64,000 nucleotides of DNA from an uncultured Gammaproteobacteria bacterium (lineage in GTDB: Bacteria > Pseudomonadota > Gammaproteobacteria > JBBQDK01): NCBI GenBank assembly GCA_963778665.1, contig CAVZVG010000003.1, forward strand, positions 128,813-192,812, in the 5' to 3' direction. The position numbers were made by a program, and so were the translations under genes. The stretch's first letter is position 1; each line of letters begins with the position of its first letter. Below the pieces are notes generated by a model. That model had not been told where the DNA came from and made no database searches. It worked only from the letters and a program-made list of their open reading frames with translations. Shown here one piece after another: positions 12,275 through 44,960 of the stretch.

Positions 12275-13642
12275 TCAGTCCAGCGCCGTCAACTTCGCGC
12301 GCATGTCTTTGTTGATCTGCAGCAGGCGTTTTTTGTTGTCCGCCGGCACTGTCGTCAGCGCCTTGACCCGCGCCGCATAATCCGCCGTCACGCCGAGTGT
12401 CTCCTCGATCATGTCGCGCAGCGCCGCGCGCGAGAAACCGAAGCCCTTGGCGAGTTGCAGCAGCGCCGCCGCAAAGCCAACCGTATCCCCGGCCTTGTCC
12501 GCTTCGCCATAGCCGCCGAACGGCATCACCGCCAGCATATCGTGCCGACTGTAGGCGCGCATCGGCGTCGGGTCGTAGACCGGCGACCAGCCGAGTTGGC
12601 CATCGCGTTGCAGGAACGACAGATTCTCCAGATGCAGGTCACCGTTGCCGGTAATGAAGGCCAGCAACAGGCGTTGCAACAACTGCCGCTTCGCCGTCGG
12701 CGGATCCGACACCAATGGAATCGGCGAGCGATCGATGGCACGGCCGAGCGCGTCATAGGAGCTGCTGTAGTGATGCGTGACGCGCGCATCGCCGGTCGCC
12801 ATCACGGCGTAGGCGGTTTCCATGAACAGCGGGCGGCCGTTGGCATCGCGGTCGAAGCGTTCGATGGCGATGGCCGGAATGCCGTTGATCTCGGTGATCC
12901 AGTGGCGCGGCACGGCGAAACCGGCCTGTGCATGTATATCCAGCGTCAGCGCCTCCAGTTCGACGATGCCGCGATACTGTTCCTTCTCGAATTTCAGCAC
13001 CACATCGCAGCGACCTTCGCTCGCGCTGCGGCTCGGCAGACCGATGCGACCGTCCCAGCCCGACGCCGGTATCGACAGCAGCAACTTCGGAATCGCGCCA
13101 CCGACACTCGGCGTCGGTCCGAGCGCCGCCAGCAGCGCCTCGGCGTCCTGATCCATCCAGGCCAGAAATTCCTTCAGCGAGAAGCCGACTTTCTCGCTGA
13201 TCGGCATCAGTGGTGCCGGCGCCTTGTCGGCATACCAGGCCTGCGCCTTGGCATCGCTCTCGAACACATCGAGATGGCCGATGCCGCCATGCCCGGCGGT
13301 CAGCAGCATCGCCCAATCGCTGTCGAAGCCGGGCTTGGGGGTGCGACCTTGTTGTTCGAGATACGACAACACCAATCGACGCTGGAAATTCGCCTCGCCC
13401 GCCGGCGGCACATGGAATTGCAATTGCGGCAGCAGATTGAAATACGTCGAGCGTTCCCAGGTGATGGTCGTGGTGCCGACGAACGACGGCGCGTACAGAA
13501 TGCCCAGTCCGGGCAGATCCGCGCCGAGAAAGTCCGCGTCATAGCTGAAGCGGCATTGCGTGTCGGTGACCGTGAGCACGCCCATCTTCTGCGCGGCCGA
13601 GCCGATGCGCGTCCACACCACCGCGTGCTTGTCCGTCGCCAT
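12275..13642 (-). CDS. hipA: HipA-family Ser/Thr kinase toxin
   Basis: 455 aa. Catalytic-loop motif GNGDLHLENLSF (compare HipA GNTDDHLKNFS). Has both HipA N- and C-terminal domains. Confidence 0.75.
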   Translation of the reverse strand: MATDKHAVVWTRIGSAAQKMGVLTVTDTQCRFSYDADFLGADLPGLGILYAPSFVGTTTITWERSTYFNLLPQLQFHVPPAGEANFQRRLVLSYLEQQGRTPKPGFDSDWAMLLTAGHGGIGHLDVFESDAKAQAWYADKAPAPLMPISEKVGFSLKEFLAWMDQDAEALLAALGPTPSVGGAIPKLLLSIPASGWDGRIGLPSRSASEGRCDVVLKFEKEQYRGIVELEALTLDIHAQAGFAVPRHWITEINGIPAIAIERFDRDANGRPLFMETAYAVMATGDARVTHHYSSSYDALGRAIDRSPIPLVSDPPTAKRQLLQRLLLAFITGNGDLHLENLSFLQRDGQLGWSPVYDPTPMRAYSRHDMLAVMPFGGYGEADKAGDTVGFAAALLQLAKGFGFSRAALRDMIEETLGVTADYAARVKALTTVPADNKKRLLQINKDMRAKLTALD

Positions 13643-31510: not shown

Positions 31511-31871
31511 TATGAGTGCTGTAGATCGGGAGACTTTTGTAAAGAGAAAAATATTTTCTCTATTAAGAGAGCGCTCGCAATCGGCGTGATCGGCTTGACA
31601 TTACCGGGTTCCGGAATTTAAATGGGGCCAAGACGAGCGGTGTGGGAATGGAAGTAGATCGCTCTCAATAAAAATCAACAGGGAATACCATGGAGAGGAC
31701 ACAACTCAATCGCCTCCGTGTACCTCACGCTACCGGCTTTGCGCTGGCAACCGTCCCTGTTCGTTCCAATCAGCCTTCCAAGGCTACGCGCGCAGTGAAT
31801 TTACGTGGTGAATCGGTTGGTATTCTGGGCGCGATATATATTGCGATACGGCATCAGGCTCGTGGCTTTCG

Positions 31872-32414
31872 GTGGCGTTTATAGCGCAAAAGATATTTGT
31901 TTTGTGTCTGCGACACATTACTACAATCTTGTGTGAGTTTTCCGTCCTAATTGTAGTGCTCGTAGTATGCTGTCAGCCCTTGGCAAAGGCATCCGTCAGT
32001 TTGCCACCCATTCTAACCCCTACGTATCTGTACAATACTTCATGGGATAGCGGCGTTCCCCTTCGCACGTACTCATCGTTTGATGAGATGAGTCAACGAA
32101 TTATACAGTCTCTCTTAAATTCTGACCCGATCCTCTTCGCGGGAAGCTATTGGATTCAAGGGTCGAATCTCTTGATCCGCAGCCCTAACTACGGGAGCGG
32201 AGCAACGTTTGATTGGCCCGGGTATTATGCCTGTAGTGATCCGTATGGAACCGTTACTGGAGTGCCGGTAGATTATACAAATCAAGACACTCCTTACCTT
32301 TGTGCCTCATGCGCTCCCGGGGCCTTTTTATATGGACCTGATACGAACTATCAGTGCATGGGTTACTACATCGAATCTCAACGTTTCAATCCAATTAATA
32401 ATGGAGGAAACTAA
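31872..32414 (+). CDS. hypothetical protein encoded in low-GC (~45%) DNA immediately upstream of Rhs
   Basis: 180-aa ORF in AT-richer DNA, where long random ORFs are unlikely. Hydrophobic N-terminal segment; 6 Cys in the C-terminal half. No family recognised. Confidence 0.3.
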   Translation: MAFIAQKIFVLCLRHITTILCEFSVLIVVLVVCCQPLAKASVSLPPILTPTYLYNTSWDSGVPLRTYSSFDEMSQRIIQSLLNSDPILFAGSYWIQGSNLLIRSPNYGSGATFDWPGYYACSDPYGTVTGVPVDYTNQDTPYLCASCAPGAFLYGPDTNYQCMGYYIESQRFNPINNGGN

Positions 32415-35400
32415 ATATTGTCCGGCAATTGTTGGAGACCCCATCAGTCTCACAACTGGCAACAAGTTCCAAGTAGAGGACGTAGTGATCGGCAACACTC
32501 CGAGTGGTCTCTCATTCGCTAGCTACTATAACAGCCAAGCAGAAACTGCAGGCTCTCTGGGTGTTAACTGGCAACATACCTACGGCAGCGTGCTGCAATT
32601 TGACAGTGCGTCGTCAGGCCCTCCCCCACAGAATCCGTACATTCCGCAGCGGAGCAATATCTACTCCTCACCTCAGGGTGCCTGCGATCAGGCTGGAATG
32701 ATATCAAAGGCAACATTGCAGAGCCGTGGGTCAGCACCGCTGTTACTCTATACACAAATAATCGCTGTGAGATATACAGCAACGGCAGGTTGGTGTTGCT
32801 CTTGCCTATTTATTATCTGGGCGGTACGATTTTTTCTGGGGGCGGACTTATTTCGTCAACACTTCCAACACATACCGTCACAGTCATTCGCCCTGATGGC
32901 AAACAGATCCAATTCAGCAAGATCAGCGGTGTCTGGCAGAACCAGTCCTATATTGCCGAGCACTTGACCGAGACTGACGATAGCAATGGCAATACCACCG
33001 GCTACACCTACACAACTGCCGATGACAACACCGAAAATTACGACGCTACCGGCAGGCTCCAGTCCATCACCGACATCGCGGTAACACGCAGAACACTCAG
33101 TTACGATCGCCAGGGCGTCTTTCCACCGTCATACCAATACTGCCGAGTCGCTGACGTTCAGTTACGATATCAGCAACCGCATCAGCACGATAACCGATCA
33201 AGGCGGCCGGTCTGGCTGTACGGCTACGACGCCAACAACAATCTCGCCTCGGTCACCTATCCGGACGCTACGATCGCCGACAACACCGACAATCCGGAGC
33301 GCGTCTATCTCTACGAGAACACCAGCTTCCCACACGCACTGACTAGCATCACCGATTGCGCGCACGTATCGAGCTGCAGCACCTCCGCCGTGAACCACTA
33401 CGCCAACTTCGAGTACGACGCGCAACGGCCGCGCCACCGCGAGCTATCTCGGTCCAGCAGACATCGGTGACTGACCGACCGCATCGAAGGCGTCTCCATC
33501 GTCTACAACAGCGACTTCATGCGCACCGTCACCAACAGTCGAGGCAAGGTCAGCACCTACAGCACCACCACGCAACTCGGCGTGGCGCTGGTCACCGGTA
33601 TCACCGGTCCGGGGTGTTCCTCGTGCGGCGGCAAGCAATGCAAGCACCAGTATGACGGCAGCAACAACCTCACCAGCAAAACCGATAACAACGGCCACGT
33701 CACCCATTACGGCAACTACGATGCCAACGGCAACCCGGGCTGCGTGGTCGAAGGCATGACGACGGCGGATGCCAGCACCGGCGTGTGCAGCTTCGATCCC
33801 GCCGCCTCGCCCGATGCACGCCGCATCGATTACACCTACGACCCACGCTTCCACAGCAAGGTCGCGACGATCAGCGAACCGTCGGTGTACGCAGGGCACA
33901 ACAAGCTCACCACCAACAGCTACGACGACTACGGCAACCTGACCCAGGTCACGATCAGCGGCTATACACCCGACGGCACTCCCGTCACGCGCACCACGGG
34001 CGGCACCTACGCCGGTCCCTTGCATCAGCTCTCACTGATCGACGGCCCGCGCACCGATGTGCAGGATCTCACGACACTGGCCTATTACCCCGACGATCCG
34101 ACGCAAGGCAGCAACCGCGCCCGCCTGCTGAGCGTCACCGACGCCATGGGTATCGCGTTGCGGTCCAACATCCAGTACTCCGCCACCGGCAAGGTGCTGT
34201 CCGAGTCGCGTCCCAACGGTGTCTCTCTGACCTACACCTATTACCCCGGCAACGACCGCCTGCACACATTGACCGAGACCGGCGGCGGCACCAGCCGCGT
34301 GCTGAGCTGGACCTATCTGCCGACCGGCGAGGTGCAGTCCATCACCACCGCGAGCGGCACCGCCGCCGCCACGACCTTGACCCTCGGTTATGACGCCGGC
34401 CGTCGCCTCACCCGCATCACCGACGGCCTCGGCAATTACATCGAGTACACGCTCGACACCGAAGACAACCGTATCGGCGAGAACACCTACGACAGCAACG
34501 GCGCCCTCAAGAAAGCCATCACCCAGACCTTCGACGACTACAACCATCTGAGCAGCCGCAGTCAGGCCAATGAGACCCTCACCACCCACGTCGCGCCGGA
34601 CGGCACCCTCAGCAACACGGTCGATGGCAACAGCAGCACGACAAGTTATGGCTACGACGCCCTGAAGCGCCTGATCAGCACCACCCAGGACCTGGGCGGC
34701 AGTGATCCCACCACCCAGAACGCACTGACCCAGTACGCCTATGACAGTCACGACGACCTCATCCGGGTCATCGATCCCGACAACCATGCCACCAACTATA
34801 GCTACGACGATCTTGGCGACCTGATCAGCACCACCAGTCCGGACACCGGCACCACCACCAATACCTATGACGCCGCCGGCAACCTCAAGACCCGCAGCGA
34901 TGCCAACGGCAGTTCGTTCAGCTACAGCTACGACGCCGACAACCGCCTCACGCTCGTCGACGCCCCCGGCAGCAACGATGACATCACCTACACCTACGAC
35001 ACCTGCACCGACGGCGCCGGCCGGTTGTGCAAGGTCAGCACGCCCGGCAACAGCGTGTTCTACACCTACACCGCCTTCGGCGAGATCGCCGGCAGCGAGG
35101 GGCTGTATTACAGCTACGATGCCGCCGGCCGGGTGCAGACCATGACCTATCCTTCCGGCGCCGTGGTGACCTACGGCTACGATGCCGCCGGTGGGATCAC
35201 CAGCGTGCAGCTCAACCGCAACGGCACGATCACCAACCTCGCCAGCGGCATCGTGCACGCGCCGTTCGGTCCGGTGACGGCGCTGAGCTACGGCAATGGC
35301 AAGACGCTGACGCAGACACTCGACAGCGCCTATCGGCTGCAAGCACAGACCGTCCCCGCCGCCCTCGATCTGAGTTATCCGCAGTACGATGCCAACGGCA

Positions 35401-37094
35401 ACCTCATGCAGCGCGGCGACAGCTTCGCCACGCCCGCGACCAGCGGCTTTGGCTACGACGCCCTGAACCGCCTCAACACCGCCACCGGTCCGTTCGGCAG
35501 CCGCAGCTACAGCGACGACAAGAACGGCAACCGCACCCAGCTCGCCGATGGCACGACGACCGACTACAGCTACGAGTCCGGCAGCAACCGCTTGCATACG
35601 ATCGGCACGGCCGACGTGCTGAACGACGCCAACGGCAACATGCTCGGCAACGGTGTCTGGAGCTATGCCTACAACACCCACAACCGAATGACGCAGGCCA
35701 AGCAGAGCGGTACGGTGATCGGCAGCTATAGCTACAACGGCCTGGGCCAGCGCGTCGTCAAGACGCTCGCCAACGGCAAGGGCCGGGTGTTCCTGTACGG
35801 CACCCACGGCGAACTGCTGGCCGAGGCCGATCAGGGCGGCACCGTCCTCAGCGAATACATCTACCTCGACGGCACGCTGCTCGCGATCAACCAGCCCGAC
35901 GACAACAATAACGGCCAGACCAATGCCCAGGAAGATGTCGCCGGCACCAACCCGGTCAGTGCCGACTATGACGTCGACGGCCTCAGCAACCTCACCGAGT
36001 GGTTCGTGACCGGCACCAATGCGCGCCAACACCGATACCGACGGCGACGGCATCAGCGACAGCGTGGAAGATCGCCAAAGGCACCGACCCGCTGAACGGC
36101 AGCGCCTATCCCGGCGACGGCGACCTCAACCAGGACGGCCAGATCAACGCCGGCGATCTGGTACTGGAATCGCAGATCGCCCTCGGCACCCGCACCCCGA
36201 CCGCCACGCAACTCACCCACGGCGACATGAACCAGGACGGCGATCATCGACGTGCGCGATATGCTGAAGCTGGAAAGAAAGATACTGGGGCTGGCGTTCA
36301 ACAGCCTCACCACGCTGCCCGGGTATCAGACGCTGGTCGCCAGCCTCGATCGGGCCAAAGACACACTCCACAGCACGGCACACCAACTCCTCGCGAGCCT
36401 GATCAGCGAGGCCGATGCCGCGACACCGGGCGGGAAGATCTTTTATGTGCACACTGATCAGGTCGGGACACCGCAGGTGCTGACCGACGAGACCGGTGCC
36501 GTCGTCTGGCGGGCGAGTTATGATCCGTACGGGATGGCGACGGTGACACTGGCGACGGGCAATCCCATTCCGGAGATGGATATCAGGATGCCGGGGCAGT
36601 ACTTCGATCAGGAGACTGGGCTGCATTACAACTACTATCGGGATTATGATCCGAAGAGCGGTAGATACCCGGAAGTAGACGCCATTGGTTTAGCAGGTGG
36701 GACGAATCCCTACGTGTACGGGTATAACAACCCACTGAGATATACAGACCCGTCAGGACTGAAACCCATTCCATGTCCCCCAGGGTCTCCTGAGGGCGCC
36801 ACATGCGATGATGGAACAGATAATCAGAATTCCCCGCCTGTCTGTGTAACTGCTGAATGTGCAGCAAACATATTACCTAACCCTCCTTCTGATGCTTGCG
36901 ACATTGAGTGCGGGTTTGCCTCTGATGCGTGGTCATCTAGGCAAATGGTTTGCACTCCAATCGGCGGTGTAGCGCGACTCTTTGGAGCACCAGGATGGGC
37001 TGTCTCAACTGGGTGCAAAATTATTGCATCGCACGAATGTAAGAAAAAGTGCGAGAAACGCAAGGAGAAGAGTGTCCCATGTACAAAAAAATAG
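32401..37094 (+). pseudogene. Rhs/YD-repeat polymorphic toxin, frameshifted in at least 5 places
   Basis: N-terminal Rhs motif CPAIVGDPISLTTGNKF...GVNWQHTYG. About 50 YD repeats. Core end IFYVHTDQVGTPQVLTDETGAVVWRASYDPYG...DPSGL at 36747-36761, then a 110-aa Cys-rich tip. Frame changes near 32800-32960, 33470-33520, 36030, 36065 and 36245. Confidence 0.7.
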
Positions 37095-37414
37095 CACTAT
37101 CAACAATTATCTTGTATCAACGATTTATATCCCCCTACAAGGGTTACTGTTGCGCGCATCGTATCGCGTATGGCGGACCGTCATGCTCGCAATATGCCGC
37201 AATAGTTATATCTGAATCTGGAGTTCTATCTTCAATTCTGAAGATTAAGTTTCGTTTGCATAAATGCAGAGCTGCCTATGCTCAATTGCTAACAGACCAT
37301 ACAAATGGCATCGGCAGTAACGGTGGTGAGACTGATGACAACCAAGCGAATGGGAAGTGTGGGCCATGTGCGAAAGACACCGCAGGGAATATATGCACAA
37401 TGCCTTGTCTGTGA
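37079..37414 (+). CDS. YidD/DUF37-like protein (membrane protein insertion efficiency factor homologue) with Cys-rich tail, in the Rhs immunity position
   Basis: ILYQRFISPYKGYCCAHRIAYGGPSCSQYA...KFRLHKC matches the YidD pattern YQRLISP...CRF.PTCS.Y...KC. Overlaps the Rhs stop by 16 nt. Low GC, like the Rhs tip. Confidence 0.55.
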   Translation: MYKKIALSTIILYQRFISPYKGYCCAHRIAYGGPSCSQYAAIVISESGVLSSILKIKFRLHKCRAAYAQLLTDHTNGIGSNGGETDDNQANGKCGPCAKDTAGNICTMPCL

Positions 37415-37481
37415 CTGCCAAAGGTGACGACTGCCAAAGGTGACAACCAAAGGTGACCAACCAAAGACTGCCAAAGGTGAC
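37413..37481. repeat. degenerate tandem array of a 16-bp unit GACTGCCAAAGGTGAC (about 4 copies)
   Basis: Two perfect units at 37413-37444, then degenerate units running into the left REP of the RAYT. Confidence 0.6.
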
Positions 37482-37483
37482 AG

Positions 37484-38283
37484 ACGAACCAAAAGGGACA
37501 GATTTATTTGAGTCCACCATGCGGCAAGCTTGAGTGGTCAAAAATCACGGAGAGGAAGACATGCCAAGGAATGGCAGAGTTGTGTTGCAAAACTACCCCC
37601 ATCACATCGTGCAACGTGGCCATAACCGGCAAGTTGTGTTTGCCGGGGAAGATGACTTCAGGTACTACCTCGACACGTTAATAAAGTGGAAAACAGAGTA
37701 TGGCGTCAAGGTCTATGGTTATTGCCTGATGACTAATCATGTTCACTTGGTGCTGGAACCGCCCGACGAGATCGCAGTGCTGGGCCGGTTGATGAAACGA
37801 CTGGCAGGGCGGCAGACCCGCTATGTGAATCGTCTGGAAGGTCGGCGCGGGACTCTTTGGGAGAGTAGATATAAATCGAGCCCAATCCAGACCGATGAGT
37901 ATTTGTTGGCATGCTGTCGTTATGTGGATCTCAATCCGGTACGAGCGCGCATGGTGGTTTCACCACAAGATTATCATTGGTCAAGCTACAGGATGAAGGT
38001 GGGATTGGACGCATCATCTTGGATAGACGAAGATCCTTGTTATTTGTCGCTTGGTCTCGTAGCCGCAACAGCGGTATGAACGTTACCAAGACTTTGTGTA
38101 TTCAGCGATAGCGGAGGGTGAATGGGAGTTGATACGACAGGCCGTTCATCGTTGCCAATTGACAGGAAACAAATACTTTATCGATGAAGTAAACGTATCA
38201 CAGGTCGGCGAATAGAGCACCGCAACCCTGGCAATCAACCGCTGGAGAAGCGCGCCAAATAAATCTGTCCCCTTTGGTTCGTC
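37484..38283 (+). mobile_element. REP-associated tyrosine transposase (RAYT, IS200/IS605-like HuH) flanked by 28-bp inverted REPs; transposase frameshifted
   Basis: Inverted repeats GACGAACCAAAAGGGACAGATTTATTTG (37484-37510) and CAAATAAATCTGTCCCCTTTGGTTCGTC (38256-38283), 1 mismatch. CDS 37561-38215 has HuH motif MTNHVHLVL and Tyr motif RYVDLNPVRARMV..WSSY. A C-terminal frame change near 38070 continues into ...EGEWELIRQAVHRCQLTGNKYFIDE. Confidence 0.65.
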
Positions 38284-38794: not shown

Positions 38795-41700
38795 ATGACG
38801 CACAATCCTCGCAACCTTCTAAGCGGCATCGTCATCCGTTTTCTGCTGTTGGTTTCATTCTTCGCTCTCGCGCCGTCGACCGGGTCTGCCGCTCCAGACA
38901 AGCCGCAAGTGAAAAATGCGCAGGCCTTGATACATCGGATTGCCCCGACAAAACCCGGGCACACACTACTGACGGACGCGGTCTACCACGACCAGATCGT
39001 GGTCAAATTCCGGGAAGGGACCCGTATCCGTCTGCGCAACAAAGTGCTGAAGGCATTGAACGGAAAGAACCTGGCACAACTTCACGATATGCTCGACAAA
39101 CACGGCAGGCCGCGCGTCAGTCGCTTGTTCAGCCGTTCCGAGGCGGGTCTTGACGACGATAAGACACGTGGCGAGGCTCGTACCCATCAGCAGCTCGCGG
39201 ACCTCAATCTGTACTACATGGTCCAGCCGCCCAGTGGTGCGAGTGAACAGGATGTCGAGTCCTTGATCGACGATCTCAACGCCATGGATATCGTCGAGAT
39301 CGCCTATCCGGAACCCAAGGCCGAACCGGCCGCCGCCGACATCCCACCCACGACACCCGACTTCGAAGCGGATCAGGGTCACCTGAATTCAGCACCACAG
39401 GGTGTGGACGCACACTATGGTTGGACCCTGCCCGGCGGCCAGGGTCTGGGTACCCGGTTCATCGATGTCGAATACGGCTGGCGTTCTACCCACGAAGATC
39501 TGAAGGCGCCCTTCTTCGCAGCGGGCAATTTCAGCAGCGGCACCTTAAGCGGCAACTCGTCCAACGACAACCACGGCACAGCGGTACTGGGAGAGATTCT
39601 CGGCGACGCCAACGGTTTCGGTATCACCGGCATCGCGCCGCAGGCCGAATATGGTGTCTCCTCCGCCACGCAGGGCGTCGCCCAGGCCATCAACACGGCC
39701 GCGGCGCAGCTGTCGCCCGGCGACGTCATCCTGATCGAGTTGCACATGAAGGGTCCCGCGTCGGGGCAGACCTGCACCTGCAACTGCGGTCAGTTCGAGT
39801 TCGTGCCGATGGAATACACTCAGGCCGACTTCGATGCGATCAAGGCGGCCACGGCCAATGGCATCGTCGTCGTCGAAGCCGGCGGCAACGGTTCGATGGA
39901 CCTCGATTCAGCGATCTACAAGGGAATGTTCGACCGCAACGTACGCGACTCGGGTGCGATTCTGGTCGGCGCGGGCAATAGTACGAATCATGGCCCCACC
40001 TGCTGGACCAACTACGGCACGCGTATCGACGTCCAGGGCTGGGGCAATAACGTCTATACGACAGGCTACGGCAATCTTTTCAAAGGAGACACCTCCGCAC
40101 CGGATCCGAATCAGTACTACACGGCGACCTTCTCTGGGACCTCCAGCGCCTCGCCGATCATCGTCGGCAGCGTGCTGGCGATGGAGGGATATCGCAAGCA
40201 GAACTACGGCACCGTCATTGCGCCCGAGCAGATGCGTCTGCTGCTGTCCATGCTGGGAACGCCCCAGGCTTCCTCACCCAAGCACATCGGCCCTCTTCCG
40301 GATATCCATGCGATGGCCGACCGTATGGGCGTGGATTCCGATCTCGACGGGCTCACCGATCAGCAGGAAGTCCAGTTCGGAACCGACATCCACCAGGTGG
40401 ATACTGACCACGACGGTGTATCCGATTACCGGGAAGTCTGTTACGACGGAGATTGCTCGACCTACAATCCCGCACCTGGCGGCGGAGACATGAATGCACT
40501 CGATCCGGATACCGATCACGACGGACTGACCGACGGGGACGAACTGCTGTTGTACGGCAGCAGCCCCGTGGCGATCGACGGCGATGGAGACGGTCTGTCG
40601 GATTTTGATGAAGTTCATGTCTATGGGACCAACCCGGGCAAGAGCGACAGCGACGGCGACGGCCTGAACGATCAAGAGGAGATTGTCCAATACCACACCG
40701 ATCCGCTGAATGCCGATAGCGACGGCGACTTGTTGAACGACTACGACGAAGTCATCACCTACCATACCGACCCTAACAACCCCGACAGCGACGGCGACGG
40801 ATTCACCGATGGCCAGGAAGTCCAGGCCGGCATGGATCCGCTGCAGTACGACGGGGAAGCCCATCCGTGGCTGGGCACGGTGACTGGCCGCGTGACGACG
40901 CCGGACGGTCGGGGGCTGGCAGGGGTGACGTTCTGGGATGTCACGAAGTATCCGCAGACGGTGACCACCGATGCGAACGGTTACTTCGTGCAGCGTGGTT
41001 ACACCAGCGGTCAAACGGTGTACTTCAACACTTTCGGAGTGCCGGGTTACACGCTGACGCCTTCCGGTTGGAGCGGTGCGCCGTTCGCCCACTCCGGCGG
41101 CGCGGAGGTGGCACGCAACTTCATCGCCACGCAGAACACCGGCACGGTGTCGGGACGGGTGACGAAGGACGACGGCAGCGCCCTGGCGGGGGCGACGTTC
41201 TGGGATGTCGTGAAATACCCGCTGACCTTCACCACGGCGGCGGACGGCTCGTTCATCCAGACGGGGTATCAGGCAGGACAGACCGCCTACTTCAACTACT
41301 TCGTGGTGTCCGGCTATTCGCTGACGCCTTCCGGCTGGAGCGGTGCGCCGTTCATCCACGACGGCAGCGCAATGACGGGCAAGGACTTCGTGGCCACGCA
41401 GAAGACGGGCACCGTGTCCGGGCGCATCACCTCGCCTGACGGCAAAGGCATCTCCGGACTGACCTTCTGGGACGTCCAGCGTTACCCGCAGACGGTGACC
41501 ACGGCGTCCGACGGCTCGTTCATCCTCACGGGCTACAACGCAGGCGACAACGTATTGTTCAACACCAACGGTATATCGGGCTACATGGTTACGCCTTCAG
41601 GCTGGAATGGCCAGTCCTTCACCCACGACGGCAGCGCCATCAAGCATCGTGACTATGTGGCGGTGCCCAACGGCAGTACAACCTGGTTGGGCACGGTAAC

Positions 41701-42490
41701 TGGCCGCGTGACGACGCCGGACGGTCGGGGGCTGGCAGGGGTGACGTTCTGGGATGTCACGAAGTATCCGCAGACGGTGACCACCGATGCGAACGGCTAC
41801 TTCGTGCAGAGTGGTTACACCAGCGGTCAAACGGTGTACTTCAACACTTTCGTGGTGCCGGGTTACACGCTGACGCCTTCCGGCTGGAGCGGTGCGCCGT
41901 TCACCTACTCAGGCAGCGCGGAGGTGGCACGCAACTTCATCGCCACGCAGAACACCGGCACGGTGTCGGGACGGGTGACGAAGGACGACGGCAGCGCCCT
42001 GGCGGGGGCGACGTTCTGGGATGTCGTGAAATACCCGCTGACCTTCACCACGGCGGCGGACGGCTCGTTCATCCAGACGGGGTATCAGGCAGGACAGACC
42101 GCCTACTTCAACTACTTCGTGGTGTCCGGCTATTCGCTGACGCCTTCCGGCTGGAGCGGTGCGCCGTTCATCCACGACGGCAGTGCAATGACGGGCAAGG
42201 ACTTCGTGGCCACGCAGAAGACGGGCACCGTGTCCGGGCGCATCACCTCGCCGGACGGCAAAGGCATCTCCGGTATCACGTTGTGGGACGTGACCAAATA
42301 CCCCCAAACGGTCACGACGGCATCGGATGGCTCCTTCACCATCACCGGTTATCAGGGTGGGGAGAATGTGCTGTTGAACACCAACGGAGCCACGGACTAT
42401 GACATCACACCTTCGGGATGGGATGGCCAGACCTTCGTTCACGACGGCAGTGCGATCACCAAACGCGACTTCATAGCCGTGCACAAGTAG
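38795..42490 (+). CDS. secreted S8 (subtilisin-like) peptidase with TSP3-type Ca-binding repeats and six carboxypeptidase-regulatory-like domains
   Basis: Signal peptide. Catalytic triad contexts D (FIDVEYGW), H (NHGTAVLGE), N (VVEAGGNG) and S (FSGTSSASP). DxDxDG repeats (DTDHDGLTDGDE, DSDGDGLND). Six ~90-aa repeats of the form GTVTGRVTTPDGRGLAGVTF.... Confidence 0.8.
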   Translation: MTHNPRNLLSGIVIRFLLLVSFFALAPSTGSAAPDKPQVKNAQALIHRIAPTKPGHTLLTDAVYHDQIVVKFREGTRIRLRNKVLKALNGKNLAQLHDMLDKHGRPRVSRLFSRSEAGLDDDKTRGEARTHQQLADLNLYYMVQPPSGASEQDVESLIDDLNAMDIVEIAYPEPKAEPAAADIPPTTPDFEADQGHLNSAPQGVDAHYGWTLPGGQGLGTRFIDVEYGWRSTHEDLKAPFFAAGNFSSGTLSGNSSNDNHGTAVLGEILGDANGFGITGIAPQAEYGVSSATQGVAQAINTAAAQLSPGDVILIELHMKGPASGQTCTCNCGQFEFVPMEYTQADFDAIKAATANGIVVVEAGGNGSMDLDSAIYKGMFDRNVRDSGAILVGAGNSTNHGPTCWTNYGTRIDVQGWGNNVYTTGYGNLFKGDTSAPDPNQYYTATFSGTSSASPIIVGSVLAMEGYRKQNYGTVIAPEQMRLLLSMLGTPQASSPKHIGPLPDIHAMADRMGVDSDLDGLTDQQEVQFGTDIHQVDTDHDGVSDYREVCYDGDCSTYNPAPGGGDMNALDPDTDHDGLTDGDELLLYGSSPVAIDGDGDGLSDFDEVHVYGTNPGKSDSDGDGLNDQEEIVQYHTDPLNADSDGDLLNDYDEVITYHTDPNNPDSDGDGFTDGQEVQAGMDPLQYDGEAHPWLGTVTGRVTTPDGRGLAGVTFWDVTKYPQTVTTDANGYFVQRGYTSGQTVYFNTFGVPGYTLTPSGWSGAPFAHSGGAEVARNFIATQNTGTVSGRVTKDDGSALAGATFWDVVKYPLTFTTAADGSFIQTGYQAGQTAYFNYFVVSGYSLTPSGWSGAPFIHDGSAMTGKDFVATQKTGTVSGRITSPDGKGISGLTFWDVQRYPQTVTTASDGSFILTGYNAGDNVLFNTNGISGYMVTPSGWNGQSFTHDGSAIKHRDYVAVPNGSTTWLGTVTGRVTTPDGRGLAGVTFWDVTKYPQTVTTDANGYFVQSGYTSGQTVYFNTFVVPGYTLTPSGWSGAPFTYSGSAEVARNFIATQNTGTVSGRVTKDDGSALAGATFWDVVKYPLTFTTAADGSFIQTGYQAGQTAYFNYFVVSGYSLTPSGWSGAPFIHDGSAMTGKDFVATQKTGTVSGRITSPDGKGISGITLWDVTKYPQTVTTASDGSFTITGYQGGENVLLNTNGATDYDITPSGWDGQTFVHDGSAITKRDFIAVHK
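40868..42487 (+). repeat. 816-bp near-identical direct tandem duplication inside the S8 peptidase gene (2 units, each 272 codons = 3 domain repeats)
   Basis: Unit 1 40868-41683; unit 2 41684-42487. Only a handful of substitutions, e.g. QRGYTSG versus QSGYTSG. Confidence 0.75.
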
Positions 42491-42752: not shown

Positions 42753-44529
42753 CTACATTGTTCTGCCTTTGTTGGTCGGCAGTGTCATCGGTATCGGTTG
42801 CTTGATGATTTTCCCAGGCCCCAGCAGGCACGGCGTCTGATCGTACTTGAGTGTCTTGAGTTGTTTTTCCACCAGCTTGTTCAGTTCATGGAAGCTGGGA
42901 TTTTCTCCCTTTGCCCGGTGCGTGTGCAGGACGGTGGCGAGGCTGTAGGTGTAGGCGCCGTAGGATGTCACGCCGTGCCGGTACTCGTAGGAGAGTTGGT
43001 TTTCCTGGCAGGCTTCCATGATGACGGGCAGATAGGGGCCGTGATGGCCGTAGTCCTTGCGGCGCCGGTCGTATTGCTTTGTTGCCAGCGAGCGCAGTTC
43101 GACGCCGCGGCCGAAACGGTTGGTGGCGCCTTTGCTGCCGACATACGCCGTGCCTTCCTTGGAGTCGGCGAGTCCCTTGTTGGCGGTGGTGAGCGGGCGG
43201 TCTTGCCACATCTGCAGTTCCACATTCCAGCGCATGGCGCGATGACGGATGTCGTCGGGCGGGCTGATGCCGCGCACGCGACGGGCGCCGTCGCGACTCA
43301 TGCCGCCCGAATGACAGCAATCGAAGATGGCGACCAGCAGGCTGTCATAGGGAAGCTGCGAATAGAACTCCACGAACTGCTTGTCGATGATCGCGTGCTC
43401 CGGTGACCAGTCGAAATCGTAAGGCACCAGGCACTCGTCGATGTGATCGACCTCGTCCTGCGAACCGTAGGCGGGGATCTGCGCGCCGTGACCGGAGTAG
43501 AACAGCACGCGTTCGTCGCCGGCCTTGGTGCCGTCGAGCAGCCAGTGCAGCCGGTCCATGATGCCTTTTGCGGTGGCGCGGTCGTCGAGCACGACGCGGA
43601 TCTCTTCCGGTTCGAAGGTGCTTTCCTGGAGCAGCTGGCTCATGAGAAAGACATCGTTGACGCAGCCGTCCAGGCGGTTCGCGGGGTCGGGGTAATCGTT
43701 GATGCCGATCAGCAGCGCGCGGCGCGTCGGCTTGGCGCTGGCGCTGCCGAAGGCCTTGATGCCGCGACTCACGGCCTTGCCGAGGCTGGTGCCGGACGCC
43801 TGTCGCCAGACGGTGTTCTCGGCGTTGACATGCGCGAGGTAATGAGCGGCGTCGTGGTTGATGATGTCGTTCGGGATGTCGAACTCGGTGATCACCTGCG
43901 AGAAATTGTCGGCGGCGATGTTGAGCTGCGCGGTCATGACATGATCGTCGGGGTTGAACAGGTGATACCACTTGCGCGCCGCCAGCGGCTCGATCCGTCC
44001 GGCGAACACATCGCGCACGAACGGATTGCCGATCTGGGAACCGAAGCTGACGAAATACTTGCCCTCGATCGCAGCGGCGTTCTGCCGGAAGGTATCGTAG
44101 CTGATCAGCGAGCCCAGACTGTGGGCGCAGACCATGTCGTAGGAACCGGCGCCGACCTTGTCGAGCAGCGCCTTGCGGGTCCTGGCGCGCAGTTTGTCGT
44201 CGGCGGTCCATTGCGCGACCATGCCGGCGGTCCACTTGACCTGCTCGGGGAAATCGAAGAAGCCGCGCGAGCGCGTGAAGAGATCGCCGACGCCGTGCAC
44301 GATGCCGCTCATCAGCAGTTTCGCGACGGCTGCCGAGTAGGTGGCGAGATTGCTCTCGGCATCCTGGAAATAATCGTCGTAATGCAGGAAGTCGAGTTGG
44401 AGTTGCGTGTCGGGAGACCATCTGCCGATGGCCGCGGTGATGGCCCGGGTCCAGGAGGGCACCAGTTGGGGGTCCGCCTCGCCGTGGCCGACACCGTGGA
44501 CACAGAGGATATTCATTGTCTTCGCCATA
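42753..44529 (-). CDS. fusion protein: N-terminal alpha/beta-hydrolase (lipase-like, GHSLG) plus C-terminal caspase-like C14 peptidase (metacaspase/CHAT-type)
   Basis: N-terminal oxyanion HG (MNILCVHGVGHG) and nucleophile elbow CAHSLGS. C14 His (VLFYSGHGAQ) and Cys (IFDCCHSGGMS) dyad. AGGGA Shine-Dalgarno before the MAKTM start. Confidence 0.7.
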
Positions 44530-44960
44530 TCAGGTTCCCTCATCTTGGCTGTGGTGGTGAAGCGGCGCGAATGTCCGCTTCTTGGTCGGGATGCGTCGAG
44601 TCGGCGGGTACTTGCCGTGCGGCATCCATGGCTTGGTGCTGTGTTGTTCAGTGCGGAGTGTCGGCAGGACTATTGTTCGGCGTGTGTCGGGCATGCGTCA
44701 AGCGTTGCCGGGTGGCATGCATCGGTGGGCGGCGCAAACCCGGGTTTCACTGCGTTCAACCCAGGCTACTCGATTCCTTTCCGCCAGCAAAACCGCGTTG
44801 CCGGCGGCAGGTTATTGCCGTGCGGGCTGTGCTGTCGAATCGGTGATGCCATCCGAGACAACGGCTTACGGACTGGCTTCACCCTATGCACAAGTCGGAA
44901 CGAATCTTGCCTGAGACCAGGTAACGACTGCTTATATCAGGTGCGACCCGAGGTGCTGCA

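Follow-up and report, generated by a model that had tools for sequence, protein, structure and literature searches.

A 64,000-nucleotide (nt) stretch of the genome of an uncultured gammaproteobacterium (contig CAVZVG010000003.1; here called the window) carries on its plus strand, at about 31.9 to 37.1 kb, an Rhs-type gene that was delimited by open reading frame (ORF) listing and three-frame translation. The gene ends in a small Cys-rich C-terminal tip, and a gene of the YidD family follows it directly; the same order of tip and YidD-like ORF is found in all 11 distinct loci in which it could be tested. The locus belongs to the Rhs polymorphic toxins, with the caveat that its carrier gene is broken as sequenced. 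As judged from sequence comparison, the tip is a small, rare and unclassified family, the downstream ORF is a true YidD-family member and a paralog of canonical YidD, and their pairing points to an undescribed toxin/partner family. We rate as about evenly balanced the chances that the tip is a membrane-targeting toxin with the YidD paralog as its cognate immunity protein. The paired elements lie in the window as follows.

36252-37094, plus strand: C-terminal ORF, 280 codons from GTG or 277 from the ATG at 36261 (protein P0002), encoding the Rhs core end, DPSGL, and the tip.
36747-36761, plus strand: DPSGL, the end of the Rhs-associated core, where the TIGR03696 match ends.
36762-36842, plus strand: linker of 27 amino acids (aa), KPIPCPPGSPEGATCDDGTDNQNSPPV, running into the CVTAECAA(G) motif that opens the core of the tip.
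36843-37091, plus strand: family-specific tip core of 83 aa, defined by alignment and matched with 111 bits in a local hmmsearch.
37062-37067, plus strand: ribosome-binding site AAGGAG, inside the tip coding sequence and 11 nt ahead of the ATG at 37079.
37079-37414, plus strand: YidD-like gene of 111 codons, matching PF01809 (40 bits; gathering score, 27) and TIGR00278 (57.7 bits; cut-off, 40).

The Rhs core end is matched by TIGR03696 (74.5 bits; cut-off, 32.5) and PF03527 (54.4 bits), and both Asp-containing motifs (VDAIGL... and DPSGL) are encoded. DPSGL would be the autoproteolysis site, cleavage being expected by analogy with the known behavior of the family. It stands where a preliminary description of this DNA had placed it, and it is followed, as described there, by 110 codons with a Lys-rich tail (KKKCEKRKEKSVPCTKK) at their end and then by a TAG stop codon (37092 to 37094). 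The number of Cys residues in the tip is 11 and not 12 as first counted. The length of the presumed released unit is correct, but the unit is composite, consisting of a shared 27-aa linker and the family-specific core of 83 aa. The linker (consensus, KP[IV]PCP.G...CDDG.DN.N.PP) and the CVTAECAAG that follows it are common to many Rhs proteins with different tips. The whole module, LKP[VI]PCP.G...CDDG.DN.N.PP.C[VA]T[AG]ECAAG (36762 to 36869 in the window), has no Pfam match and precedes many unrelated tips in the manner of a pre-toxin domain; besides the window, its carriers are the fetched loci L003, L005, and L007 to L018 and the proteins P0017, P0019, and P0021 to P0026.

The framework of the core reads C-x4-C, C-x3-C, C, a hydrophobic segment, C, C-x3-C, and a charged tail usually holding the last Cys, so that eight to nine Cys residues are conserved. 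The hydrophobic segment covers about 20 residues and contains a G-x-P-G turn. AlphaFold2 models the tip as three helices with a predicted local distance difference test (pLDDT) value of 55, a low confidence that does not establish the fold; the twin C-x3-C motifs have a possible structural analogy in small Tim proteins. No Pfam or NCBIfam model matched any of 13 tips (the window's and 12 relatives) at E ≤ 0.01, the tip profile matched no PDB sequence, Foldseek returned nothing at E ≤ 0.001, and a comparison with 72,556 plasmids gave no match. The tip thus resembles no known family in Pfam, NCBIfam, or PDB, models of nucleases, deaminases, ADP-ribosyltransferases, and pore-formers included; the preliminary description had likewise seen no resemblance to nuclease, deaminase, or ADP-ribosyltransferase tips. 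It is not unique, being one of a small family. Just one and then two proteins came from word-index searches, and to find the relatives 1.84 billion representative proteins had to be searched exhaustively with a profile, which yielded 26 matches at E ≤ 1e-3, with the whole core present in about 12 clusters.

The downstream gene had been described as YidD/DUF37-like, and it scores above the thresholds of both Pfam and NCBIfam models; the profile searches that had been proposed for the tip and this ORF accordingly return no toxin family for the former and confirm YidD for the latter. It overlaps the tip ORF, stop codon included, by 16 nt, in agreement with the overlap noted earlier. The YidD domain covers approximately residues 3 to 65 and is followed by a variable linker and a C-terminal tail, GNICTMPCL. 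Alignments show the YQxxISP motif and the three conserved Cys residues, with a five-residue insertion between the first two (KGYCCAHRIAYGGPSCS), which are thereby spaced C-x10-C; the corresponding spacing in Escherichia coli YidD is presumably C-x5-C. The protein has neither a signal peptide nor a transmembrane segment (highest 15-residue hydropathy, 1.7), and its AlphaFold2 model is of low confidence (pLDDT, 61; tail, below 50). A housekeeping yidD was considered and ruled out by the neighboring genes (an Rhs tip and a repetitive extragenic palindromic [REP]-associated transposase instead of rnpA-yidD-yidC), by the insertion, and by the different C terminus.

This gene is easily overlooked. 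The exact YidD-like protein of the window is absent from a collection of 15 billion proteins, the gene never having been called, and the gene is also left uncalled in L001 (1946-2257) and L028 (1137-1451), probably due to its overlap with the preceding gene; protein-database searches therefore under-report the family. A word-index homologue search with the protein, whose gene is often uncalled, found nothing, a scan of viral contigs with the YidD-like alignment found no relative, and its profile had no match among PDB sequences.

Six-frame translations of every fetched locus were searched with two profiles built locally, one from the tip core and one from the YidD-like protein. A YidD-like ORF lies directly after the tip in 11 of 11 distinct testable loci, a testable locus being one with a tip core of at least 97 bits and enough downstream DNA (the window, L001/L002, L006, L019 [partial], L020, L021, L023, L024, L025, L026/L027, and L028). 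L022 stands outside the count, as its DNA ends 59 nt past the tip. The survey of related loci that the preliminary description had called for thus finds the two genes linked throughout, and none of the outcomes that it had named as refuting came about. The starts of the YidD-like genes overlap the tip gene by 4 to 25 nt or sit within 8 nt of it, and the two are translationally coupled. All 11 partners match Pfam YidD (PF01809), those of the relatives have 36 to 48% protein identity to the ORF of the window, and the C-x10-C insertion is common to them. The tail CxNxCT[ML]PCL is present in 8 of the 10 full-length partners; the other forms are CSMPCW in L006 and a shorter Cys tail ending in CL in L001. 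Tip and partner diverge together: their identity matrices are correlated (Mantel r = 0.63, p ~2e-4), and the partner evolves as fast as the toxin tip (mean identity, 48%). The only other gene conserved beside the pair across the loci is Transglut_core2, found upstream in three loci with a miniature Rhs form.

It might be argued that the adjacency is coincidental or that the YidD-like ORF is a spurious overlapping frame, because the ORF is uncalled in the public annotation of this genome as well as in L001 and L028. That explanation is refuted by the same arrangement in 11 independent loci with 36 to 48% identity, by the Pfam YidD match of all partners, and by the strong ribosome-binding site ahead of the ATG.

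The surroundings of the tip in other genomes show which position the YidD-like gene occupies. L020 and L025 are arrays consisting of an Rhs end, a small gene, an orphan Rhs end, and another small gene; in them, the YidD-like gene fills the slot that a lipoprotein-like or transmembrane protein fills for the neighboring, different tips, that is, the immunity slot. Sister tips that have the same Cys framework with a middle part richer in Gly and Ala (L009, L010/L008, L012, L004, and L029) are followed by a different partner, which carries an N-terminal zinc ribbon and two transmembrane segments. The other small Cys-stapled tips behind the common linker have multi-transmembrane partners (L007, L011/L013, and L017) or a partner with one transmembrane segment (L005), and larger tips behind this linker have soluble partners (L014 and L018). 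The partner therefore changes when the tip changes, since the sister tips and the tips that share just the linker carry partners other than YidD-like proteins. The zinc-ribbon proteins (CPxC...CxxC; L009:6249-6512, L010:1745-2056, L012:300-605, and L029:881-1192) look like an uncharacterized immunity family in their own right.

The tip also occurs in miniature. The mini proteins P0001, P0007, P0014, and P0016 begin with a Sec signal peptide, have no YD shell, and keep of the Rhs core just the final ~40 residues, which lead into the linker and the tip. In three loci they belong to a three-gene operon of a signal-peptide-bearing Transglut_core2 protein, the mini-Rhs, and the YidD-like protein (L001:497-2257, L024:238-2078, and L026:5093-6869, the last being equivalent to L027). 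For the Rhs toxin of the window, a Sec signal peptide would probably serve as the export route.

The preliminary description had left open whether the YidD-like protein is an immunity protein, a helper, or part of a two-component toxin. Strict linkage, the immunity slot in the arrays, and the lack of any other conserved partner gene favor immunity, short of proof. In this reading, the tip would be a small membrane-acting toxin, delivered by or derived from an Rhs protein, and would form a helical hairpin with the paired C-x3-C motifs around the hydrophobic Gly/Pro-containing segment; whether held by disulfides or by metal, its Cys residues would staple this structure. The YidD paralog would be located on the cytoplasmic side of the inner membrane, the presumed place of canonical YidD, and would neutralize the toxin by binding or blocking the hydrophobic hairpin. 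A membrane target is proposed because the sister tips pair with small membrane proteins, in parallel with the Rhs pore-former Tse5 of Pseudomonas aeruginosa and its immunity protein Tsi5, an integral protein with two transmembrane segments (PMC9637101, PMC10684867).

Several observations weigh against this assignment. The YidD paralog lacks both a signal peptide and a transmembrane segment, yet the Sec signal peptides and many Cys residues of the mini toxins suggest an extracytoplasmic, disulfide-bonded toxin that would be out of reach of a cytoplasmic protein. The hydrophobic segment of the tip is modest (highest hydropathy, 1.3), the structural models of both proteins are of low confidence, and the correlation between the identity matrices is what co-inheritance through linkage would produce by itself and is no proof of contact. 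In addition, the same YidD subfamily is found without any Rhs tip on megaplasmids and chromids of Deinococcus, Pseudomonas, Vibrio, and Loktanella.

L030, 3977-4294: stand-alone YidD paralog of Deinococcus sp. QL22.
L031, 3974-4390: stand-alone YidD paralog of Pseudomonas silesiensis.
L033, 2501-2854: stand-alone YidD paralog.
L034, 2477-2905: stand-alone YidD paralog.
L032, 3001-3405: stand-alone YidD paralog.

These proteins (in Deinococcus sp. QL22 [WP_249395900.1], on P. silesiensis pPL1, in Vibrio parahaemolyticus, and in Loktanella salsilacus) share the signature SPxKG[YF]RCA[HY]...GG.xCS...RFxxC and resemble the paralog of the window in the C-x10-C insertion, a charged (Lys/Glu-rich) linker, and a long Cys-rich tail. 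They differ from it in that no Rhs tip lies upstream and no toxin adjoins, and their tails lack the CxNxCT[ML]PC[LW] ending; the Prokaryotic Genome Annotation Pipeline (PGAP) annotates them simply as YidD. The linkage is therefore one-directional: the tip always brings a YidD-like gene, and the claim of linkage holds strictly in this direction, but the YidD subfamily is broader and does not require the tip. Since stand-alone copies exist, the subfamily may have a general function apart from immunity, which also counts against the immunity reading.

A second reading makes the YidD paralog a dedicated helper in the export, insertion, or maturation of the tip, acting like canonical YidD at the Sec/YidC translocon. 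It would then keep the hydrophobic, Cys-rich tip competent for Sec or stop its insertion into the producer's membrane from inside, with a possible role of its Cys tail in metal or redox chemistry. Membership of the partner in the YidD family is genuine, and YidD is listed, in a passage of one article that cites Yu et al. 2011, as a SecYEG/YidC-associated insertion efficiency factor (PMC8082313). The mini toxins carry Sec signal peptides and would therefore pass the site of YidD action, the translocon, export signals are missing from the partner, and the existence of the subfamily without toxins suggests a generic biochemical activity. However, the 11 loci hold no other conserved gene to serve as immunity, the YidD-like gene occupies the exact immunity position in the arrays L020 and L025, and the sister tips need no such helper, being followed just by small membrane proteins typical of immunity. 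We regard the helper function as unlikely, yet as the main alternative for the role of this protein.

Far less probable is a two-component toxin, or a jointly secreted Cys-rich complex, which would have the tail CxNxCT[ML]PC[LW] of the YidD-like protein as its active or modified portion. The two proteins are each rich in Cys and are coupled in translation, and a strongly conserved Cys motif closes the C terminus after a linker that is variable and disordered, a layout reminiscent of a leader and core. Against this, neither modification enzymes nor dedicated exporters are encoded in the loci, no signal for secretion is present in the YidD-like protein, and such an arrangement is without precedent in polymorphic toxin systems, where the downstream gene is normally the immunity gene. 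A broader form of the immunity reading, which we put forward as a speculation of low probability, is that YidD-fold proteins are dedicated antidotes or handling factors for small Cys-stapled, membrane-inserting Rhs toxins that exploit or attack the YidC/Sec insertion route, with the paralog serving, at the site of contact between canonical YidD and hydrophobic hairpins, as a decoy or a block.

The carrier gene upstream of the tip is an Rhs gene by its matches to DUF6531, RHS_repeat, RHS, and TIGR03696, as had been recognized from the sequence. It is not one continuous ORF, however, as that description implied; its parts and the patches that leave the main frame are as follows.

31872-32414, plus strand: ORF of 180 codons in frame 2 with an N terminus that by eye resembles a signal peptide and with a Cys-containing region; no Pfam or NCBIfam match.
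About 32411-32695, plus strand: patch 1, in frame 0.
32434-32607, plus strand: Rhs N-terminal DUF6531 motif (GDPISLTTGNKF...NWQHTY), in frame 0 only; PF20148, 42.7 bits, and tblastn with the L005 Rhs protein.
32695-33467, plus strand: first YD repeats, in frame 2, broken by two out-of-frame patches; from the RHS_repeat match, the trace of G+C content at third codon positions (GC3), and junction read-outs.
33113-33215, plus strand: patch 2, in frame 1 and then 0, with three single-base deletions, the first in a G run.
About 33425-33470, plus strand: patch 3, in frame 0, with the frame-2 stop at 33468-33470 inside it.
33471-36092, plus strand: YD-repeat shell of 874 codons open in frame 2; 63 to 65% G+C, GC3 of 0.8 to 1.0.
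About 36010-36230, plus strand: patch 4, in frame 0 and then 1, with three +1 shifts, over the TSP3-like/dockerin-like repeats.
36010-36230, plus strand: TSP3-like and dockerin-like calcium-binding repeats, inserted ahead of the Rhs core end; Dockerin_1 (PF00404), 32.5 bits, in frame 1.

The YD repeats match PF05593 (RHS_repeat) with 166 bits in eight stretches and TIGR01643 with 80 bits. All long stretches of the gene are in frame 2, and the Pfam matches fall in frame 0 (DUF6531), 2 (YD repeats), 1 (dockerin-like), and 2 (core end). Altogether, about 10 single-base frame changes are gathered in the four short patches, a path on which the GC3 frame trace, tblastn with the intact homologue L005, and nucleotide read-outs of the junctions agree; stops in frame 2 occur at 32412, 32520, 32601, 33468, 36093, and 36228, inside three of the four patches. 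The 180-codon ORF is probably the original 5′ end of the gene, cut off from DUF6531 by a frame change at about 32411, because intact L005 has a like order of signal peptide, Cys-rich region, and DUF6531; the start would thus lie upstream of the one first proposed, at about 31872. In L005 (5097-10303), the homologous Rhs is itself split into two ORFs overlapping by 4 nt, the second of which opens with a separate signal peptide and has an additional domain ahead of the Rhs core end, at the position of the frameshifted TSP3/dockerin insert of the window.

Because of these multiple disruptions, a full-length protein that could release the tip is impossible from the gene as sequenced. The part of it that is intact with the tip is limited to the last 277 to 280 codons, the sole piece called in public data (P0002); with nothing else of the locus intact but this ORF and the YidD-like one, the cassette is similar here to an orphan module. 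The frame breaks may stem from real decay into a pseudogene or else from long-read indels left unpolished in a stretch where polishing is difficult. Frame 2 is regained after all four indel clusters, which under random decay or error has a chance of ~(1/3)^4, about 1 in 81. The length of the source contig is 1.07 Mb, and the neighboring genes of 1,027 to 1,412 codons are intact.

Base composition along the locus is a mosaic, as described before, with a G+C fraction of 0.50 at 31600 to 33100, 0.63 at 33100 to 36600, and 0.48 at 36600 to 37414; that of the flanking genome is 0.61 to 0.63. In the frame trace, GC3 falls from ~0.8 to ~0.4 near 36600, about 150 nt before DPSGL, and because of this position, the foreign cassette starts within the conserved core end rather than where cleavage would occur. 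We take the segment between about 36600 and 37414 to be a low-G+C toxin cassette, horizontally acquired and fused to the end of a high-G+C Rhs shell gene, comprising the last part of the Rhs core, the common Cys linker, the Cys-stapled tip of 83 aa, and the translationally coupled YidD-family gene. The mini forms found elsewhere (P0001, P0007, and P0014) start at the same point of the Rhs core as the drop in G+C and GC3 in the window, which was counted in favor of a foreign cassette. Repeats and a transposase gene border it downstream.

37418-37481, plus strand: direct repeats, four exact copies of CCAAAGGTGAC in 64 nt, directly 3′ of the YidD-like stop codon.
37534-38079, plus strand: REP-associated tyrosine transposase (IS200-like Y1); PF01797, 50.7 bits, and NF047646, 74.5 bits against a cut-off of 80.

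The transposase gene sits at the 3′ edge of the low-G+C island. Palindromic REP repeats are the usual companions of REP-associated tyrosine transposases. The CCAAAGGTGAC copies between the YidD-like stop codon and this gene are direct repeats, unlike the palindromic REP type; the window contains five matches to the motif against 0.64 expected, the fifth site lying elsewhere and having one mismatch.

All this raises the question of whether the locus in this genome is a dead relic, a rhs pseudogene with an unexpressed cassette, whatever the family does elsewhere. The ~10 frame changes and six frame-2 stops speak for it, as do the low-G+C island adjoining a transposase and the C-terminal ORF that is without a signal peptide. 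On the other hand, the tip ORF and the YidD-like ORF are intact and align over their full length with homologues, and the clustering of the indels, with frame 2 regained after every patch, is unexpected for random decay. The size of the contig makes unpolished long-read errors a live alternative, and orphan Rhs C-terminal modules can be expressed or reactivated (PMC3967940). We judge a dead relic to be a substantial possibility, falling somewhat short of an even chance.

A type VI secretion effector was considered as well and rejected: a Pfam scan of 10 large neighboring ORFs found no type VI secretion protein, PAAR and VgrG included. Just outside the low-G+C island, a secreted TSP3-repeat protein of 1,231 aa adjoins a caspase-family (Peptidase_C14) protein encoded on the opposite strand (38795-42490 and 42753-44543, minus strand); the secreted protein has long, near-identical internal repeats of CarboxypepD_reg-like units. 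A gene for a HipA-like kinase of the toxin-antitoxin type (12275-13642, minus strand) has no relation to the Rhs/YidD finding.

In its general plan the locus follows the Rhs/YD-repeat polymorphic toxins (Zhang et al. 2012, PMC3482391; Poole et al. 2011, PMC3150448): it has DUF6531, a YD shell, a core ending in DPxGL, a low-G+C variable tip, and a small gene just downstream on the same strand, and related loci here form orphan tip/immunity arrays. It differs from them in that Pfam and NCBIfam list neither the tip nor the partner among toxin or immunity families, the carrier is disrupted, and the scanned neighbors include no type VI genes. The text of the 2012 survey of polymorphic toxins does not mention YidD/DUF37 (PMC3482391), and a search of the accessible literature on YidD with Rhs, toxin, or immunity found no description of the tip family or of a YidD-fold partner. 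With Tse5/Tsi5, the tip family shares a small non-enzymatic Rhs C-terminal fragment, the lack of a predicted enzymatic fold, and, putatively, action on the cytoplasmic membrane and an immunity protein located there. However, Tse5 depends on type VI secretion, has a PAAR-like N terminus, and lacks the conserved Cys framework in its tip, and Tsi5 has two transmembrane segments, whereas the YidD-fold partner has none.

The partner itself resembles canonical YidD of the rnpA-yidD-yidC operon in an N-terminal hydrophobic/amphipathic stretch, YQRxISP, the three Cys residues, a helical core, and scores above the family thresholds. It differs in that a variable linker and Cys-rich tail replace the C-terminal PxxxGGxDPVP region, in that a toxin tip takes the place of the rnpA/yidC context, and in that it evolves as fast as its toxin. 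In orphan rhs C-terminal modules of Salmonella, too, core end, tip, and partner gene can exist without an intact shell, and the retained piece of the core can serve as recombination homology (PMC3967940). The mini forms of L001, L024, and L026 differ from these modules in having their own Sec signal peptide and an upstream Transglut_core2 gene, which suggests an independent function rather than that of a silent spare part.

Rhs and other polymorphic toxins are a main source of new antibacterial activities, and each new toxin/immunity pair marks a weak spot of the cell. The pairing described here points to the inner membrane as the place at or through which the toxin would act. Its partner is no orphan fold, as YidD is a small protein present in most bacteria whose function is known just as that of a modest "insertion efficiency factor," and a conserved, fast-evolving YidD paralog bound to one toxin family offers a simple assay of what the YidD fold binds. 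The analysis also defines a rare tip family, a common linker that marks Cys-stapled tips with membrane-protein partners, and the mini-Rhs/Transglut_core2 operon. If the two genes form an ordinary toxin/immunity pair, they would be a useful new family that adds no new principle; if the decoy or antidote reading were true, they would provide the first clear, genetically testable molecular activity for the nearly universal YidD family, together with a new toxin target.

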